Made by a program: the position numbers and the translations under genes. A stretch of DNA of 64,000 nucleotides from Candidatus Poribacteria bacterium (lineage in GTDB: Bacteria; Poribacteria; WGA-4E; JAJDTR01): NCBI GenBank assembly GCA_965222225.1, contig CBDCTK010000002.1, forward strand, positions 5,312,001-5,376,000, written 5' to 3'. This document shows positions 3,643 through 62,498 of this stretch, in pieces; the first letter of the stretch is position 1; each line of letters starts with the position of its first letter. The notes beneath the pieces were generated by a model. That model had not been told where the DNA came from. It did not search any database and saw only the letters and a list, made by a program, of their open reading frames with translations.

Positions 3643-3664
3643 GTAGGGTGGGCACTGCCCACCC
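3643..3664 (+). repeat. GTAG-type REP hairpin (uninterrupted)
   Basis: GTAGGGTGGGCACTGCCCACCC; related copy at 20940-20960. Confidence 0.8.
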
Positions 3665-3690: not shown

Positions 3691-3808
3691 GATCAGCTGA
3701 GATCAACCGAACGATCAACTGAGTGGATAACGAAGGCGATAGTAAATCCTACAGTGGGGGATCAAGTGAGTGGACAACGAACGCGATAGCTAATCCCGAT
3801 AGAGATCC
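3691..3808 (+). repeat. GATCAA..GCGATAG structured mini-element cluster (2 full copies, 2 partial heads)
   Basis: Full copies start at 3713 and 3760; partial heads at 3691 and 3701. Confidence 0.85.
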
Positions 3809-20539: not shown

Positions 20540-20604
20540 GATTAACCGACCGGATAGCGAATGCGACAATACTTCCATAGAGATCTCAGTGCGATAGCAA
20601 CCCC
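20540..20604 (+). repeat. GATCAA..GCGATAG mini-element (degenerate copy plus extra tail)
   Basis: GATTAACCGACCGGATAGCGAATGCGACAA...GCGATAGCAACCCC. Confidence 0.7.
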
Positions 20605-20916: not shown

Positions 20917-21196
20917 GAGCCTGTTTGAAAAGTACATTTGTAGGGTGCGCACTGCGCACCAACCTCTAAAAGCCCCAGAGTGGGATCAAGGGAGCGAATA
21001 GCGACTGCGATAGAGATCCATGAAGGTGTATAGAAACGCCAAAACCCCGTGCACCTAAGCCCCAGCGGGGATCAAACGAACGGATAGTGAGTGCGATAGC
21101 AATCCCATAGGTACGTAGCAGGCAACAATTAAGACATGGAAGAACTTCCCACAAATGACCAAAAATGGCTTTCCTATCGATTATTCAAACAGGTTC
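20917..21196. mobile_element. IS5-like MITE carrying a REP and two mini-element copies (20984, 21070)
   Basis: Terminal inverted repeats GAGCCTGTTTGAA / TTCAAACAGGTTC, flanked by TAA on both sides. Confidence 0.7.
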
Positions 21197-27255: not shown

Positions 27256-27474
27256 TATAGTCATGTCCATTCATGTGTACCCATATTAATGAGAGAAATT
27301 AGCGACTTGATTGTTGAAGATTGTTACGACAAACTTACTGTAGGAGCGATCTCCCGATCGCGACCGCCTGTCGCTAGGAAAGCTCGCTCCTACAGAAGAC
27401 GCGCAATAAATTGCACTACGATGAATCAAACTGCATAAATCCTATATGTGTAATTCTCAGTTGTAATGACTATA
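27256..27474. mobile_element. MITE containing a REP doublet (REPIN, 27340-27393)
   Basis: Ends TATAGTCAT/ATGACTATA; an inverted relative at ~50908-51082 shares GTTTGTCGTAACAATCTTCAA and the REP doublet. Confidence 0.6.
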
Positions 27475-27679: not shown

Positions 27680-27759
27680 GATTAACTGAGCGAATAGATC
27701 AAACGACTGAACAAGGAGTGTGATAGAGATTCCGAGGCGATAGCAATCCCATAGATATC
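27680..27759 (+). repeat. GATCAA..GCGATAG mini-element, nested pair
   Basis: Inner copy at 27697 interrupts an outer copy starting at 27680. Confidence 0.8.
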
Positions 27760-39877: not shown

Positions 39878-40098
39878 GAATCTGGGAGTTTGTTTGAAAC
39901 TTTATTTTGGGTAGAGTCATTTGCCTTGAAATCAATCATGGGAATCGATAGTAATTGCGATAGAGCTCCTATAGAGATTCGGAATTAGTAGCTTGTAGCT
40001 TTTAGACTGACGACAAACATAAAACTTGGTACCCTGTCGTAAATCTTTTCGTCGCACGTAGATGTCCATAGTGACTATTCTTCTCGTAGGAGTTTGCT

Positions 40099-40953
40099 AT
40101 GGACATTTTGAATCTTATGAAAGAGTTTCCAAATCAAGAATCTTGTCTCAGATTTATAGAGGAAAAACGTTGGAAGGACGGTGTTTGCTGTATCCACTGT
40201 GGCAGTGAAAAAGTTGGACGCAAGAACAGAAACGACATTACTACTGGTTGGAATTGCTACGATTGTGAATCTAGCTTTTCGGCTACAGCAGGAACCATCT
40301 TCCATGGTACCAAGATACCTCTCCAGAAATGGTTTTTGGCTATCTCAATCCTTTCCAATGCCAAGAAAAACATATCGAGTTGTCAGCTTGCTCGTGACTT
40401 GGACATGAATCAAAAGTCCGCTTGGTATATGGCAATGCGCCTCCGTGAGAAAATGAGTGATAGTGATGAATTGCTGAAAGGGATAGTTGAAGCGGACGAA
40501 ACCTATGTCGGCGGCAAACCCAGAGCAAAATCTAAGAGAGGTAGAGGCACAAATAAATCTCCCGTCATCGGCGTAGTCGAGAGAGGCGGTCGGGTGGTTG
40601 CTAAATTCATGAAGGTTCTATCTGGTGAAAATATCAGAGAATTCATCCTTAGCAATGTCTCACCCGATGAGTCTATTCTTATGACTGATGAATTTCGCTC
40701 TTACAATAGTCTGGACGAAGATATCGAAAGACATGTTATCCATCACCAAGAGAGATATGTTTCTGAGGACGGCGTAACTCACACCAATACCATCGAGTCG
40801 GTTTGGGCTTGTGTCAAGAGGTCATTCTACGGAACGCATCATCACTACAGCAAGAAGTGGCTGCCACTGTATATCATGGAGTCTTGCTGGAAATATAATC
40901 GCAGAAAAGATGATGAGATTTTCATAAGATTTTTTGATGAATGCTTCACCTGA
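40099..40953 (+). CDS. IS1595-family transposase
   Basis: Zn ribbon C..C/C..C, VEADETYVGG, MTDE, HTNTIES.W. Confidence 0.95.
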   Translation: MDILNLMKEFPNQESCLRFIEEKRWKDGVCCIHCGSEKVGRKNRNDITTGWNCYDCESSFSATAGTIFHGTKIPLQKWFLAISILSNAKKNISSCQLARDLDMNQKSAWYMAMRLREKMSDSDELLKGIVEADETYVGGKPRAKSKRGRGTNKSPVIGVVERGGRVVAKFMKVLSGENIREFILSNVSPDESILMTDEFRSYNSLDEDIERHVIHHQERYVSEDGVTHTNTIESVWACVKRSFYGTHHHYSKKWLPLYIMESCWKYNRRKDDEIFIRFFDECFT

Positions 40954-40971
40954 GCCACATGAATTGTTTGG

Positions 40972-41094
40972 CTATCGGTATATTCTGTCAACGACAGCAT
41001 CATGGTATGATGTAAATCCCATAGTGTTGGAAATTAAAATCCCGCAGATAACCCGCAATGCTCCCGCGAGCATGTACAAACGCTTGGTCAACAT
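40972..41094 (-). CDS. Putative 40-aa passenger peptide in IS copy 1
   Basis: GGAGG SD; MLTKRLYMLAGALRVICGILISNTMGFTSYHDAVVDRIYR. Confidence 0.4.
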   Translation of the reverse strand: MLTKRLYMLAGALRVICGILISNTMGFTSYHDAVVDRIYR

Positions 41095-41228
41095 GATATG
41101 CCTCCATTTCTCTCTTATAGAGATGTATTTTAGTGTGAATCAAGATTCCGAACACTGTCTAAAGTTATTGTACATTAAGAAAAGAAAAGCAAGCAAATCA
41201 ACCAAAAAGCAGTTAACTACTAAGTCCC

Positions 41229-41372
41229 TAGAGATTTCCTCAAACGAGTGACTAGATCAATCGACTGAATAAAGAACACGGTAGAAATCGCGCTGTAATA
41301 GGGTTCCCATAAAAATTTTCACCAGCCTTTGAAAGGCCCTGCGTGAGATCAAGCGAGCGGATAGCGATTCCC
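41229..41372 (+). repeat. Mini-element copies (41255, 41347), continuing the repeat tract split by the IS
   Basis: Left part is GCGATAGAGCTCCTATAGAGATT at 39957-39979. Confidence 0.7.
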
Positions 41373-41514: not shown

Positions 41515-41659
41515 CGACATGCTGCACGGTGTCGGAAACCGCTGTCAACTATTTAAATGGTCAATCAACAAGGCCAGATAATCGAAATCTTCCCTGCTTT
41601 TGTTCAACGCTTGATTGGCGCTGTATGTTGTGCCGTTCGAATGTAAAGAGTCGAGCTAA
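41515..41659. repeat. MITE/IS remnant, right part (homologous to 60716-60863)
   Basis: Shared ~150 bp ending in ATGTA(A/C)A(G/A)AGTCGAGCTAA. Confidence 0.6.
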
Positions 41660-41675
41660 TACCTTATGAGAAATT

Positions 41676-43133: not shown

Positions 43134-43336
43134 GATCAAAGGAGTGAATAACGACTGCGATAGGGATCTTCCATTTTACCCTGTCTTAGTAGTCTATTCT
43201 CCAGCTAGTTAATACTTACGACTGCCACAAGAGACATGTTTCGCAACCCCTACGAGCCTTTACGCATAGCCAGTTCTAATCCGTGAAATCCTTTAATCCG
43301 ATCAACTGACTGGACAAGGAAGGCGATAGGGAATCC
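43134..43336 (+). repeat. Two mini-element copies (43134-43172, 43300-43336)
   Basis: GATCAAAGGAGTGAATAACGACTGCGATAG and GATCAACTGACTGGACAAGGAAGGCGATAG. Confidence 0.85.
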
Positions 43337-47571: not shown

Positions 47572-47831
47572 GTAGGAGCGATCAAGCGACCGATTAGGGA
47601 GTGCGATAGGAATCCTCTTCAAATCGCGACCGCGATACAGCTCCCATAGAGATGGCGCCACACCGCCTGTAGGCGAGGATTGAACGAGTGAATAACGAGT
47701 GTGCGATAAAGATTCCCTCAAGTGACTTAATAGGACCAACTGAGTGAATAACGAAGGAGCAACTGACCGATAGGGGAGGCGCTAGAGTTCCCATAGAAAA
47801 TCCCACGCGATAGAAGGCCTAGGGCGATAGC
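47572..47831 (+). repeat. REP plus mini-element cluster (47580, 47678, 47734 with a nested copy)
   Basis: GTAGGAGC[GATC...]..AATCGCGAC host; several heads and tails. Confidence 0.8.
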
Positions 47832-48009
47832 TTTTCTCCGAAATTCAAGCCATTAATGCACTGTCATTTTAAAGAAATGGTATAATATATCGGAATTAGT
47901 AGCTTGTAGCTTTTAGACTGACGACAAACATAAAACTTGGTACCCTGTCGTAAATCTTTTCGTCACACGTAGATGTCCATAGTGACTATTCTTCTCGTAG
48001 GAGTTTGCT

Positions 48010-48864
48010 ATGGACATTTTGAATCTTATGAAAGAGTTTCCAAATCAAGAATCTTGTCTCAGATTTATAGAGGAAAAACGTTGGAAGGACGGTGTTTGCT
48101 GTATCCACTGTGGCAGTGAAAAAGTTGGACGCAAGAACAAAAACGACATTACTACTGGTTGGAATTGCTACGATTGTGAATCTAGCTTTTCGGCTACAGC
48201 AGGAACCATCTTCCATGGTACCAAGATACCTCTCCAGAAATGGTTTTTGGCTATCTCAATTCTTTCCAATGCCAAGAAAAGCATATCGAGTTGTCAGCTT
48301 GCTCGTGACTTGGACATGAATCAAAAGTCCGCTTGGTATATGGCAATGCGCCTCCGTGAGAAAATGAGTGATAGTGATGAATTGCTGAAAGGGATAGTTG
48401 AAGCGGACGAAACCTATGTCGGCGGCAAACCCAGAGCAAAATCTAAGAGAGGTAGAGGCACAAATAAATCTCCCGTCATCGGCGTAGTCGAGAGAGGCGG
48501 TCGGGTGGTTGCTAAATTCATGAAGGTTCTATCTGGTGAAAATATCAGAGAATTCATCCTTAGCAATGTCTCACCCGATGAGTCTATTCTTATGACTGAT
48601 GAATTTCGCTCTTACAATAGTCTGGACGAAGATATCGAAAGACATGTTATCCATCACCAAGAGAGATATGTTTCTGAGGACGGCGTAACTCACACCAACA
48701 CCATCGAGTCGTTTTGGGCTTGTGTCAAGAGGTCATTCTACGGAACGCATCATCACTACAGCAAGAAGTGGCTGCCACTGTATATCATGGAGTCTTGCTG
48801 GAAATATAATCGCAGAAAAGATGATGAGATTTTCATAAGATTTTTTGATGAATGCTTCACCTGA
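48010..48864 (+). CDS. IS1595-family transposase
   Basis: 3 aa differences from copy 1. Confidence 0.95.
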   Translation: MDILNLMKEFPNQESCLRFIEEKRWKDGVCCIHCGSEKVGRKNKNDITTGWNCYDCESSFSATAGTIFHGTKIPLQKWFLAISILSNAKKSISSCQLARDLDMNQKSAWYMAMRLREKMSDSDELLKGIVEADETYVGGKPRAKSKRGRGTNKSPVIGVVERGGRVVAKFMKVLSGENIREFILSNVSPDESILMTDEFRSYNSLDEDIERHVIHHQERYVSEDGVTHTNTIESFWACVKRSFYGTHHHYSKKWLPLYIMESCWKYNRRKDDEIFIRFFDECFT

Positions 48865-48882
48865 GCCACATGAATTGTTTGG

Positions 48883-49005
48883 CTATCGGTATATTCTGTC
48901 AACGACAACATCATGGTGTGCTGAAAATCCCATAGTGTTGGAAATTAAAATCCCGCAGATAACCCGCAATGCTCCCGCGAGCATGTACAAACGCTTGGTC
49001 AACAT
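48883..49005 (-). CDS. Putative 40-aa passenger peptide in IS copy 2
   Basis: MLTKRLYMLAGALRVICGILISNTMGFSAHHDVVVDRIYR. Confidence 0.4.
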   Translation of the reverse strand: MLTKRLYMLAGALRVICGILISNTMGFSAHHDVVVDRIYR

Positions 49006-49149
49006 GATATGCCTCCATTTCTCTCTTATAGAGATGTATTTTAGTGTGAATCAAGATTCCGAACACTGTCTAAAATGATTGTACATTAAGAAGAGAAAAG
49101 CAAGCAAATCGACCAAAAAGCAGTTAACTACTAAGTCCCTAATATATTC

Positions 49150-49230
49150 ATGCCGAAAGACTTCGATTCCTCTTCAATTGTCACATGGCGCGCCGTGTTG
49201 ATTGGTCTCCTCTTGAATCCCGACAACAAT
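49150..49230 (+). pseudogene. 5' fragment of a membrane-protein gene
   Basis: MPKDFDSSSIVTWRAVLIGLLLNP, then the frame runs into repeat DNA. Confidence 0.4.
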
Positions 49231-49300: not shown

Positions 49301-49624
49301 GTAGGAGGATCAAAGGAATGAATAATGACTGCGATAGAACTCCCATGGAGGTCCCCACGCCCATCGGGTTGGGAGACCCAACGCCTTCGGATGCCGGTGC
49401 ATGCCTACCGATGGTTTGGGCCCTCGTCTCCCTCCAACGGATTAAGCTGTGTCTATATGCCAAAAGCACAGAGAGAACCCGTAGGAGCGGGGATCAACTG
49501 AGCGAATAGCGAAGGCGATAGAGATTTCCTCAAATGCGATCAAGCGACTGAACAAGGAGCGATCAAACGAGTGGATAGCGAGTGCGATAGAACTCCCATA
49601 GAAATCCCCTCTCCTGATCGCGAC
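49301..49624 (+). repeat. REP plus mini-element cluster (49308, 49492, 49538, 49561)
   Basis: Host GTAGGAGCG[...]CTCTCCTGATCGCGAC is split by three copies. Confidence 0.85.
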
Positions 49625-50954: not shown

Positions 50955-51008
50955 GTAGGAGCGATATCCCGATCGCGACTTCCTGTCGCGAGTAAAACTT
51001 GCTCTTAC
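50955..51008. repeat. REP doublet (REPIN)
   Basis: GTAGGAGCGATATCCCGATCGCGAC ... GTCGCGAGTAAAACTTGCTCTTAC. Confidence 0.7.
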
Positions 51009-51423
51009 AATTGGTTTGTCGTAACAATCTTCAATCATCAAACTGCAAAGAGAATCTTCAAGGTGAATAGCAGGAGACTACAATAACATGAAAATGCCCA
51101 ACCCCAAATTACCCAAAGTAGCTATGTCTATTATTCAAACAGACTCTAAATGGTATTTTCGCTAAGTAATTATCGTAAAACTTATACGGTTGAGCGACGT
51201 TCCCCCTTGACAAGGGGGTTGGTATGCATCTTACGTCCGATGGCTTTAGAATTACTACTGCCACTATACACTTACAATCAAGGTAATCCCAAAATCCCAT
51301 GAATCACTGTTCAGACAATGTTAGCTACCGACACTCAACACTTACCATATATTCTTAGATCGACTTTGTACATTTGTAGGATGGAATCGGCGACCATCAA
51401 TTCCCGATTTCCCCTCTTACTGA

Positions 51424-51611
51424 GATCAAGCGAACGAATAGTGAGTACGGTAGAACTCCGATAGAGTTCCCACCAGCACCGTAGGCGGGGATCAAATGAA
51501 CGAATAGCGATCAACACCGACCGGATAGTGGGGGATCAAGCGAGTGAATATCGAGTGCGATAGAACTCCCATAGACAATCCCGTGCGATATAGAGATCCC
51601 CTTGCCCCGCC
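51424..51611 (+). repeat. Mini-element cluster, including an apparent triple nest inside a GTAGGCGGGG..CTTGCCCCGCC REP
   Basis: Heads at 51424, 51490, 51509, 51534; stacked tails. Confidence 0.85.
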
Positions 51612-51667
51612 TTCGCCGCCACCACATAACGAATGCGTTAGAAAGCCTGCTGCGATAGCGATCCCCT

Positions 51668-60569: not shown

Positions 60570-60861
60570 AACTCGACTTTGTACAAACGTACAACAGTTG
60601 GGTTGAGCGGAAAGCCGTACAGCACCAAATCCGTAGGCGGGAATCAAGGGAGTGAATAACGACCGCGATAGAGATCTCCTTGCCCCGCCGTGCAGCATCA
60701 AGATTCAAGCGAAATCCAACACGTTCTGCATGGTAGCAGAAACCACTGCCGACTTTTTCAATGGTCAACCAACAAGACCAGATGGTTAAAATCTCTTCCA
60801 CTTTTCTTCAACGCTTGATTGACACCATCTGTTATCCCGCTTAAATGTACAAAGTCGAGCT
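60570..60861. mobile_element. MITE with CTCGACTTTGTACA inverted ends, carrying a REP plus a mini-element (60642-60678)
   Basis: CTCGACTTTGTACA / TGTACAAAGTCGAG; another left end at ~51357. Confidence 0.65.
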
Positions 60862-60863
60862 AA

Positions 60864-61098
60864 AAACTTGTTTGAAAATTAATTCGTAGCAACACCATTT
60901 GCTCTGAAACCAAGTTTTTCATCAGCGCTCATGTAGGTGCACACCGCGATCAAGGCAACGAGCATCAACTGCGATTGAGATTCTACCAGCCTTTGCCCCG
61001 TGGATTATACTCTTTTGGAGCGAACTCCAGCTCGCGAAAAAACTCGCTCAACGCAAATGACCAAAGATAGCTTCGCCATCTATTATTCAAACAAGCTC
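60864..61098. mobile_element. IS5-like MITE (same family as 20917-21196) carrying a degenerate mini-element (60948)
   Basis: CTTGTTTGAA / TTCAAACAAGCTC ends, TAA flanks, shared CAAATGACCAAA subterminal sequence. Confidence 0.65.
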
Positions 61099-61127
61099 TA
61101 AGCCGCTGAAAGTGCCTAATAATTGTG

Positions 61128-61778
61128 CTATGTTGTAGAACGACTGTTGAAACAGCAAGTTTCTAAGGGAGTGTAAACTGCCCCGCTTTGTCGAAGGTGG
61201 CTTTGGACAACTCGGATCTCATTGACGACCATGGTGGCGCCATTGATTGTATCATATTGTTGGAACACGTCAACGAGAGGTTTCAAATCAATTCGATGTT
61301 TGAGCCGGGAAAGAGTTAAATGTGGACTGGACGGCTTCTCATCACGCTCATATCCATGGCGACTTAGTCCTATATCGATTTCTCTGGCAATGGCAATGAT
61401 CTCATCTGCGCCGGTTTTCACGCCTGCCCAAATAATCCTTGGACGAGTCAAGTTTGGGAAGGCGCCAATACCCCCTATCTCCATTGAAAAAGGTGACCGA
61501 GTATCCGCCACCTGTTCAATCGCATTTTTGATTACGCTAATTTGATTTGGGGCGACATCTCCAAGGAATTTCAAGGTCAGATGAATGTTTCCGCGCTTTA
61601 CCCATGAGGCTCCGCGGATGTCCTTCCTGAGTTCCTCCTGAGCGGAAGTTAGCAGCGTCTGAATCGCTTCGGGAATCTCAATTTCGACAAAGCACCGTAT
61701 CTGTTCTTGGTTCACACTTTCTATGGGGATTTGGTTCGGGTTCAAGCCAACGGACTGCTTGATTTTCAACCTGACCAA
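61128..61778 (-). CDS. thpR: RNA 2',3'-cyclic phosphodiesterase (2H family); real start probably GTG ~61715
   Basis: HLTLKFLG and PHLTL motifs. Confidence 0.92.
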   Translation of the reverse strand: MVRLKIKQSVGLNPNQIPIESVNQEQIRCFVEIEIPEAIQTLLTSAQEELRKDIRGASWVKRGNIHLTLKFLGDVAPNQISVIKNAIEQVADTRSPFSMEIGGIGAFPNLTRPRIIWAGVKTGADEIIAIAREIDIGLSRHGYERDEKPSSPHLTLSRLKHRIDLKPLVDVFQQYDTINGATMVVNEIRVVQSHLRQSGAVYTPLETCCFNSRSTT

Positions 61779-61780
61779 GG

Positions 61781-62386
61781 TTAAAAATCATCTCCCGAAT
61801 CAAAGAGATCAGTTGATCGCATCACGGAATACAGCGCTTTGCGATTCCCGTACACAAACTCTAATCCCGATATCACAGTTAGGACAAGAGGTGCGTACAT
61901 CATGAAATAGATCGGCCTAAACTGTTCAATCCATTCATCCCCCACTCCATGCCCATGGAACACTAGCAGAATCAGGCTCATGAAGATAACAACCATCTGC
62001 GAGGTAGCCTTATATTTTCCCCACTTGTTCGCTGCAACAACAGAACCCTGTGTGGCGACAAAAAGCACCCGCAACCCTGTCACAACCAATTCGCGTCCCA
62101 TGATTGTTAGAACCATCCAGCCTGGGATAAGTTTTTCACCGAACAGGCAGATGAGTGCTGCGCCCACTAGCAACTTGTCCGCAAGCGAGTCAACAAATTT
62201 GCCGAAACTCGTTACCCCGTGTTTGCGAGCAATTCGCCCATCAAGGAGATCGGTTAATGCCGCCACTCCAAAAATAATTGCGGGCAGCAAACGGTAATAT
62301 CGAAAAGAAATCATGAGTGGAGGAATCATCAAGATGCGCGAAACCGTCAAACCGTTCGCCAAATGTTGGAGCGTGCGAAAGTACAT
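61781..62386 (-). CDS. pgsA: CDP-diacylglycerol--glycerol-3-phosphate 3-phosphatidyltransferase
   Basis: TDLLDGRIAR....T.FGKFVD..ADK. Confidence 0.92.
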   Translation of the reverse strand: MYFRTLQHLANGLTVSRILMIPPLMISFRYYRLLPAIIFGVAALTDLLDGRIARKHGVTSFGKFVDSLADKLLVGAALICLFGEKLIPGWMVLTIMGRELVVTGLRVLFVATQGSVVAANKWGKYKATSQMVVIFMSLILLVFHGHGVGDEWIEQFRPIYFMMYAPLVLTVISGLEFVYGNRKALYSVMRSTDLFDSGDDF

Positions 62387-62442
62387 CGTTCAATCACTTA
62401 TCCATCAAGGCAATCGTACCTGATTCTAAACTAGGCACTCTT

Positions 62443-62498
62443 GTAGGGTGCGCACTGCGATCAAGGGAGTGAGTAGCGACCAGGATAGAGATCCCACC
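62443..62498 (+). repeat. REP hairpin split by one mini-element (62459-62493)
   Basis: GTAGGGTGCGCACTGC[GATC...GATC]CCACC versus the intact REPs at 3643 and 20940. Confidence 0.85.

Follow-up and report, generated by a model that had tools for sequence, protein, structure and literature searches.

We know of no mechanism for elements of less than 40 nucleotides (nt) such as the small dispersed repeats (SDRs) of cyanobacteria. Those of Nostoc called SDR4-6, gene-less units of 21-27 nt described by Elhai et al. 2008, are reportedly mobile and nested in other repeats. For SDR5, insertion at the word HIP1, GCGATCGC, has been suggested (PMC5861425). The spread of repeats of the size of repetitive extragenic palindromes (REPs) is still argued largely from one Escherichia coli enzyme. 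E. coli TnpA-REP is reported to act on single-stranded DNA only and to depend on a REP that has GTAG as its tag and a mismatch in its stem (PMC3333891). According to the same source, cleavage takes place to the left or right of the REP as well as in linkers and needs little beyond one dinucleotide, and the enzyme acts over hundreds of bases and transfers strands. IS608 is reported to favor the lagging-strand template (PMC3333891, PMC6006769). Here we describe a gene-less repeat family, hereafter the element, with a unit length of 34-37 nt, that lies within REPs and other repeats of a 64,000-nt stretch of DNA from a Candidatus Poribacteria bacterium (contig CBDCTK010000002.1, positions 5,312,001 to 5,376,000). 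This whole stretch is referred to as the window, and positions without a contig label are counted within it.

The genome that contains the window (G000) comprises 5.70 Mb in two contigs with 49.8% G+C, and its main chromosome is the contig labeled C2. Close relatives of this genome are all titled Candidatus Poribacteria, a sponge-symbiont phylum. The element forms one family with the consensus GATCAA-NN-GA-NN-GRATA-NN-GA-NN-GCGATAG-ARATCC. A profile was built from 18 window copies and run by nhmmer on the window and the genome, which gave 24 matches in the window at E<10, every one on the plus strand, and 1034 matches in the genome at E<0.01. The alignment analyzed below holds the 1027 ungapped genome copies, 1024 of which lie on C2. 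An exact 35-mer of the element is expected 0 times in shuffled sequence, and the degenerate pattern GATCAANNGANNGRATARNGANNGCGATAG occurred 486 times in the genome compared with 0 times for the same pattern reversed. A scan of the 64-kb window against Rfam returned 0 matches at or above the gathering thresholds. Among the 1027 copies there were 66 different 5'-half combinations, 307 hairpin barcodes and 605 distinct 30-mers, and the copies formed 570 clusters, 220 of them with more than one copy.

Base-exact evidence for insertion came from the region at 60633-62498, whose copies occupy two spacers, one between recA and a LigT-family phosphoesterase gene and the other between a CDP-alcohol phosphatidyltransferase and a LolA-like gene. 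In the window, a REP1 hairpin at 62443-62498 carries a 35-nt insert, ATCAAGG..GATCC, in its 3' arm (62460..62494, plus strand). The orthologous locus of a related species (L006), upstream of the phosphatidyltransferase gene, reads GTAGGATGCGCACTGCG^CACCAGCC, and the window has the 35 additional bases at the position of the caret. Of the other relatives, two closer ones have a larger composite at this site, one has no REP and five could not be aligned. The empty 24-mer seen at L006 occurs 25 times in the window genome.

Filled and empty sites were then paired within the genome. For 75 of the 1027 copies, the copy's own flanks, when joined, matched an exact 24-nt genome sequence; after tandem-array artifacts had been removed, 63 unique filled/empty events remained, with a net insert of 34-37 nt and no target duplication in any of the 63 pairs. 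The hosts were of at least seven kinds: REP1, REP2, two more REPs of the GTAG type, a GGGAATAACGA..TCGTTATTCCC palindrome and three positions within the element itself. A single REP1 position, TGCG^CACC, was occupied by 7 distinct inserts. The element also entered genes. A copy at G000:C2:3738216-3738252, within the gene at 3736518-3738572 (L126), adds the 11 residues RSSEGTASAIE in frame; among five aligned repeat-protein homologues, these residues are present in one and missing from the four that come from other genomes. The repeat-protein family that hosts this copy is hugely expanded, with 37 matches in the window genome and 27-87 in relatives, and further copies lie deep within open reading frames (ORFs) of 2419, 531, 769 and 639 aa and are read through. 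Together, these results show that whole units of the element have been inserted, at (C/G)G^C or CGA^N, and that the target is not duplicated in the process.

An earlier, sequence-only reading of the window had listed filled and empty forms of REPs and other repeats, and all of these statements were correct when read back from the sequence. Its proposal of a tiny non-autonomous element that targets other repeats is supported by the orthologous empty site, the 63 pairs, the 7 inserts at one REP1 position and the in-gene copy, and the comparison of orthologous intergenic regions that it had recommended yielded the empty allele with an exact junction at L006. Its further statement that no copy lies in a credible gene stands for the window, where 0 of the 4 small ORFs overlapping copies had a Pfam match, but not for the genome: approximately 95% of copies are outside ORFs of at least 150 aa, while 41 of the 1024 ungapped C2 copies are inside such ORFs and at least one of the in-gene copies, the one described above, is an in-frame insertion in a real gene.

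The second copy of the region, in which the leading G is replaced by A, fills a REP3 hairpin, GTAGGCGGG..CTTGCCCCGCC (60642..60678 within REP3 60633-60689; profile and sequence). In 4 of 4 public runs, contigs skipped 60642-60678, and run X5 recorded GCAT instead, the empty REP3 form; as REP3 is a multicopy repeat, these contigs may derive from paralogous REP3 copies, and those assembled from RNA libraries are no proof of transcription. An empty REP3 with the loop GCATCTTG is present in a related locus (L007). Four further window spacers were compared with their orthologues, for which both anchors were found in 7, 2, 1 and 0 genomes, respectively; these spacers differ wholesale, and none of the four yielded another single-unit junction. 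The spacer that holds an IS1595-family insertion sequence (IS) and copies near 39934-41369 is 1.9 kb long in the window, whereas in five relatives it measures 128-130 nt and contains no repeat.

Two classes of target were distinguished. The first, ..(C/G)G followed by C, receives ATCAA..ATC(C), and the second, ..CGA, receives TCAA..ATCCC, so that all products have the left end (C/G)GATCAA and the right end ATCC(C). At both ends, the register of the junction can move by one base; an ambiguity of 1-3 nt is frequent, and the 3' end varies (ATC, ATCC or ATCCC). Terminal symmetry of the element is limited to GATC..GATC. The element itself offers three targets (numbered as below): one follows position 22, one follows position 15 in the loop, and one separates positions 25 and 26. 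These self-targets generate the nests at 49481-49620 and 51481-51625, in which 5' halves are followed by one full unit and then by 3' halves.

The choice of site and strand was closely tied to the tag of the host REP. In 416 of the 1027 copies, GTAG was present upstream at a distance of no more than 41 nt and on the strand of the copy, with distance peaks at 0-5 nt (214 copies) and 12 nt (39 copies), and the main peaks contained 20-46 hairpin variants. CTAC was upstream in only 86 copies and without a comparable peak. The REP1 palindrome offers TGCG^CA on both strands, yet the GTAG strand received 90 copies and the opposite strand 2 at most. When tested for the GTAG/CGTC tag, the inserted unit was found to begin with (G)ATCAA and to carry no GTAG; in the 416 copies above, the host repeat supplies it. 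These data show that the favored landing places are the first 0-12 nt past the GTAG tag of a REP, on the GTAG strand, together with the three places internal to the element. In an array at G000:C2:1578411-1578563, 38-nt units follow each other head to tail, each ending in ..GCGATAGTCTTGTAG and the next beginning with GATCAA, which places a GTAG tag immediately 5' of every unit.

In the model numbering, position 1 is the base preceding GATC. The unit then reads GATCAA (2-7), NN (8-9), GA (10-11), NY (12-13), GRATA (14-18), RN (19-20), GA (21-22), NN (23-24) and GCGATAG (25-31), followed by a tail of 6 or 7 nt that is mostly ARATCC(C). Across the 1027 copies, the column pairs 8-24, 9-23, 12-20 and 13-19 had the highest mutual information of all pairs examined. 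These four pairs were standard (Watson-Crick or G.T) in 93-97% of copies compared with 52-80% expected from the column compositions, and between them positions 10.22 were G.A and 11.21 were A.G in 94-96% of copies. A set of 61 distinct copies, drawn from the window and from loci of several related genomes, gave the same picture: 93.4% of cells paired compared with 62.0% in shuffles, a value reached by 0 of 500 shuffles, and sliding the partner by 1-3 columns reduced pairing to 22-58%. Nearly all permitted stem combinations occur among the copies. The element is one family: its unpaired bases (GATCAA, GA/GA, GRATA and GCGATAG) are invariant, and its four base pairs covary freely and exist on the GATCAA strand only.

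Three restrictions apply to the stem. The base 5' of each GA is never A, the base 3' of each GA is never T, and the loop-closing pair is always Y-R, a pattern that we take to be compatible with a stack of sheared G.A pairs, with G14.A18 among them above a loop of three bases. G.T pairs are common in a single direction, with G8.T24 in 258 copies and T13.G19 in 141, and the mirror forms are absent. On the complementary strand, the G.T and G.A positions would bear C.A and C.T/T.C mismatches. The one-way G.T pairs and the mismatches on the complement indicate that what is under constraint is the GATCAA strand in single-stranded form, and it is this form of the element that is selected.

We also compared the orientation of copies with transcription and with GC skew. 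The flanking-gene classes +E+ (344) and -E- (295) revealed no transcription bias. Among the 498 clusters with a single orientation, 338 lay on the C-rich strand (100-kb GC skew windows; p about 1e-15), and where the 200-kb skew exceeded 0.015 in absolute value the split was 206 to 77. Compared with the local majority gene direction, the same clusters divided 238 to 260. Empty REP1 copies were biased by skew in the same way (80 versus 30). The orientation of the element thus follows the sign of the GC skew, as that of the host REPs does, and ignores transcription; because the skew of C2 flips sign many times and replichores are not cleanly defined, the polarity is provisional. In 200-kb bins, the C2 skew has approximately ten sign changes, which suggests many large inversions or assembly joins.

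A survey of 151 Poribacteria genomes with the exact element pattern found it in 17, and it was abundant only in two genera of different families. All 9 genomes of the window's genus carried 274-752 copies per genome, and all 4 genomes of a second genus, from another family, carried 110-125. One genome of a third genus had 13 copies, and three other genomes had 1-2 copies each. The exact pattern was absent from the remaining 134 genomes, including all 100 of the largest family, and it had 0 matches in viral contigs and 0 in JGI metagenome contigs. In the second genus, the tail of the element is TCTTC.. instead of AGATCC.

In a search for the enzyme, 5 Y1_Tnp matches and 6 matches to the profile of REP-associated tyrosine transposases (RAYTs) were identified in the window genome. 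All 5 Y1_Tnp matches are outside the window, in agreement with the sequence-only reading, which had found no candidate enzyme there; the window nevertheless holds two IS1595-family transposase genes. That reading had also advised looking for RAYT, Y1 and reverse transcriptase genes next to copies. Such Y1 and RAYT genes do exist, but the copies near them lie only in the genes' own REPs: with the exception of the gene at L044, in whose flanks no REP was recognized, each inspected Y1 gene has a REP family of its own on its sides, and copies of the element sit in these REPs. The only RVT_1 match in the genome scored 26.8 bits, below the 29.6-bit cut-off; no element copy is nearby, and the protein looks like a defense-type protein. 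TnpB had 0 matches in the window genome.

One Y1 protein was considered as the cognate transposase and rejected. P0001, the best IS200-like protein of the genome, has 157 aa (C2:3080255-3080728; NF033573, 65.8 bits with a cut-off of 55) and is flanked, together with a truncated paralogue, by inverted element copies. At 30 of 30 loci from many genera, the flanking repeat was a different one, AAGCCCCAG(C/A)GGGGCGACAGGTGTATAG, and the element was only nested therein, and this solely in element-bearing genera. These 30 loci (L049-L078) have an IS200-like Y1 gene with inverted AAGCCCCAG(C/A)GGGGCGACAGGTGTATAG on both sides and covarying stems GCACC/GGTGC and GTCCC/GGGAC, a RAYT-like layout, conserved across the phylum, whose repeat is without a 5' GTAG tag. 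Other Y1 genes have GTAG-type REPs at their flanks, and these too contain the element. The RAYT-profile match at L045 is flanked by REP2 copies, one of which contains a nested element, and is possibly a decaying RAYT. In the second element-bearing genus, a RAYT gene (L088) is flanked by GTAGGTTGGGT..ACCCAACCTAC repeats, some of which have the loop AGAGATCAA, resembling the 3' end of the element joined to its 5' end.

How does such a unit move? The element is a non-autonomous mobile DNA of 34-37 nt whose identity lies in a single-stranded mini-hairpin, and we give an even chance to the explanation that it is mobilized in trans, as single-stranded DNA, by REP-bound Y1 transposases of the RAYT type. 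The element would then move as single-stranded DNA, and RAYT-type Y1 HUH transposases, seated on a REP in cis, would excise and paste it; it would be a parasite of the REP/RAYT system, its G.A-mismatched hairpin mimicking the body of a REP. The properties of E. coli TnpA-REP given above would yield a passenger that travels from REP to REP, with a one-base wobble at the junctions and with mosaics. A bolder version of this reading, which we offer tentatively and doubt somewhat more than we believe, makes the element a third trophic level: a 35-nt hairpin of two 2-bp stems around tandem sheared G.A pairs, with a G.A-capped triloop and with neither tag nor enzyme of its own, would borrow the GTAG of the REP and the Y1 transposase bound to it and thus be the parasite of a parasite. 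If this is true, hardly any self-defined mobile DNA known from bacteria is smaller than the element, and the near-saturated covariation at its four pairs is a natural mutational scan of what the enzyme reads. Several findings weigh against mobilization by RAYTs. For 335 of the 1027 copies, approximately a third, the context was assigned neither to a REP nor to another copy. Of the 151 Poribacteria genomes, 128 have RAYT-profile matches and 98 have relatives of P0001, and neither family co-occurs with the element. The RAYT or HUH agent suggested by the sequence-only reading is plausible, as Y1 genes are present in the genome, but no Y1 or RAYT gene was specifically tied to the element, and the best RAYT-profile match (the gene at L045, G000:C2:3088913-3089326, 133.9 bits) has one in-frame TAG. 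The hairpin strand is mostly the C-rich strand; if the G-rich strand is the leading strand, it would be the leading-strand template, a polarity to GC skew apparently opposite to that of IS200/IS605. The junctions are looser than those of IS200/IS605 and also fit template copying. DNA energy parameters missed the hairpin in 5 of 5 copies (z -0.5 to +1.5), whereas with RNA parameters it was the minimum-energy fold in 5 of 6; with either set no copy folded better than shuffles, and as folding models give no credit to sheared G.A pairs in DNA, the energies neither support nor refute the fold.

The patchy distribution of the element, in two genera of different families and one 13-copy genome against near-universal RAYTs, would be easier to understand if the element-bearing lineages had a dedicated, unrecognized enzyme (another HUH protein, a nuclease or a recombinase) for which REPs are good targets as exposed hairpins, and the invariant unpaired bases do resemble a specific protein footprint. 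We nevertheless consider such an enzyme unlikely: among the gene neighbors of copies, we found only RAYT and Y1 genes, with the element inside their own REPs, and an enzyme able to read GTAG accounts more directly for the strict co-orientation with this tag. The looseness of the junctions raises the question of whether the unit is instead copied in, with a 3' end in ..CG or ..CGA annealing over 1-3 nt to an RNA or single-stranded DNA copy of the element and being extended, by target-primed copying or by template switching during replication, and with the hairpin marking the template. Such copying would account for the microhomology-like ambiguity at both junctions, for the variation in register and 3' end, and for the uniform ends of the products, (C/G)GATCAA at the left and ATCC(C) at the right, irrespective of the side from which the shared bases came; the RNA fold also speaks for it. 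The sequence-only reading had itself offered writing-in at breaks as an alternative, which the 1-3-nt ambiguity and the variable 3' ends may reflect. We judge copying by either route, target-primed or by template switching, to be rather unlikely, since the lone RVT_1 match is as described above, the orientation is independent of transcription, and passive template switching leaves unexplained both the strand choice of 90 versus at most 2 and the approximately one thousand complete units. A motif selected by the host, for example a hairpin for a nucleoid, replication or RNA-binding protein, could explain why the structure is kept in about a thousand copies, why its orientation follows a replichore-like skew and why the family persists across two genera. 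As its spread by selection would not explain how it arrives at new sites, and as copies nest destructively in each other and in REPs, sister-species orthologous spacers do without copies and no Rfam family matched, we regard this as very unlikely. That the unit never moves alone, and that each REP-plus-unit composite arose once and owes its later amplification to the RAYT of its host REP, appears extremely improbable. Some composites have indeed been amplified whole. One 30-mer has 45 occurrences, for the most part within one REP1 composite, and 42 copies have the left flank TGTAGGGTGC of REP1 in common, with most of the 15 listed being one hairpin variant. In this respect the sequence-only reading, which had named such amplification, together with a lack of empty alleles in relatives, as fatal to its proposal, was partly right, but empty alleles do exist in relatives. 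The 63 filled/empty pairs, whose hosts are of seven kinds or more, the 307 barcodes among 1027 copies, the orthologous empty site and the in-gene insertion all speak against it, and the diversity of inserts at one site (7 at one REP1 position) means that composite amplification cannot be the full explanation. Amplification of composites is thus contradicted as a complete account and remains as a second route of spread beside the insertion of single units.

The further copies and host repeats of the window listed here all lie on the plus strand. Empty REP1 hairpins, GTAGGGTG(G/C)GCACTGC(C/G)CACC, are found at 3643..3663 and 20940-20960, and empty REP2 doublets are found at 27340..27394 and 50955-51009. 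Two adjacent full copies of the element occupy 3712-3747 and 3760-3793. A full copy at 20984..21019 lies past a GCCCCAGAGTGG hairpin in a REP5 composite, with a sister copy at 21070-21105 and a weak one at 20540-20585, and another at 27697..27732 has leftover 3' halves behind it. At 43134..43168, a full copy stands immediately 3' of a CTCCAGCGGAG hairpin of the REP5 type; the copies at 20984, 21070 and 43134 follow GCCCCAG(C/A)G(G/T)GG and CTCCAGCGGAG hairpins. The full copy at 43299..43335 has the context AATCC..TGATTCAGACAA. REP2 is filled at 47572 by a full copy (47579..47615), after which degenerate units extend to approximately 47830. A full copy at 49308..49343 (profile and sequence) begins 3 nt past a GTAG tag (GTAGGAG|GATCAA). 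In the nest at 49492..49596, the full units 49492-49526 and 49560-49596 and the partial unit 49537-49560 are nested in the REP2 at 49481, GTAGGAGCG..TCTCCTGATCGCGAC. A long REP1-like composite that starts at 51376 contains a full copy at 51424..51459 (profile and sequence), and the nest at 51490..51600, in the REP3 from 51481, consists of two 5' halves, the full unit 51534-51569 and the matching 3' halves, with split positions that agree with the genome-wide self-targets. A degenerate copy at 60947..60983 (nhmmer E 9.9e-05) lies inside a REP1-like unit from 60933 to 60990.

Two IS1595-family copies, at 39979-41250 and 47882-49150, encode a 284-aa DDE transposase with a zinc ribbon. Approximately 30 chromosomal copies of this IS have 99-100% identity, so the IS appears to have been active recently. 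Beside the first of the two is a diverged element copy (39934..39969), and across the IS are the copies at 41255-41289 and 41347-41369, the latter partial. A 157-nt direct repeat (75% identity) at 60721-60877 and 41517-41673 adjoins element-bearing REP3 units, which indicates that REP3 is part of a larger repeated module.

Few mobile DNAs seen in bacteria are as small as the element, and we found no published description of its family in the literature. It offers a data set of about a thousand copies per genome, with dozens of base-exact filled/empty pairs, hundreds of compensatory variants and a preference for the GTAG side, and thereby connects a mini-element with REP-bound Y1 transposases in a concrete manner that can be tested. 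It shows that REP clusters can arise by nested invasion, and it reshapes the spacers of sister species (128-130 nt versus 1.9 kb, including an IS copy) and can add an 11-residue loop to a protein. Nostoc SDRs are similar in being far shorter than 100 nt, gene-less, dispersed and nested, and the target CGA^TC of the element lies within the HIP1 word. They come from cyanobacteria rather than Poribacteria, measure 21-27 nt instead of 34-37 nt and were likened to the element by description only; a cyanobacterial origin or a link to HIP1 was rejected, as GCGATCGC is not enriched in the window genome (120 copies in 5.7 Mb) and its relatives belong to the Poribacteria. [quoted passage not shown] Unlike them, the element lacks terminal inverted repeats that match a transposase-bearing IS, leaves no direct-repeat footprint and is three to ten times smaller.

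IS200/IS605 elements and the gene-less palindrome-associated transposable elements (PATEs) share several features with it: they lack terminal inverted repeats and do not duplicate the target, they insert 3' of a short word and in a strand-specific way, a hairpin is recognized, and the genome also contains a Y1 HUH enzyme. They differ in having separate hairpins at the left and right ends instead of one, a length of more than 100 nt instead of 35 and fixed instead of variable cuts; the element accepts a loose target word, (C/G)G^C or CGA^N, with a one-base shift of register, compared with the fixed word of PATEs. Moreover, the element has no parent IS and no TnpB in the genome, and the only IS200-like gene has other flanks. 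The element is thus neither a MITE nor a PATE. REPs, with the bacterial interspersed mosaic elements (BIMEs) and REPINs built from them and with their RAYTs, are closest: as reported (Bertels & Rainey 2011, PMC3116915; Ton-Hoang et al. 2012, PMC3333891; Di Nocera et al. 2013, PMC3733652), they too are 20-40 nt long, mostly intergenic, high-copy and hairpin-based, and they have in common with the element compensatory stem changes, a designed stem mismatch, processing of one strand, and clusters and mosaics. Unlike REPs, the element has GATCAA as its tag with no GTAG or CGTC of its own, inserts into REPs of several families and not beside them, and has a stem of 2+2 bp around tandem G.A whose pairs are nearly saturated with variants; in addition, no RAYT gene is primarily flanked by it. 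With respect to REPIN-type inverted doublets, 72 of the 570 clusters are of mixed orientation and 30 copies lie within an inverted copy, and what is inserted is single units. The element therefore fails two of the REP features tested, a tag of its own and a primarily flanked RAYT, but of the systems compared it works most like a REP.

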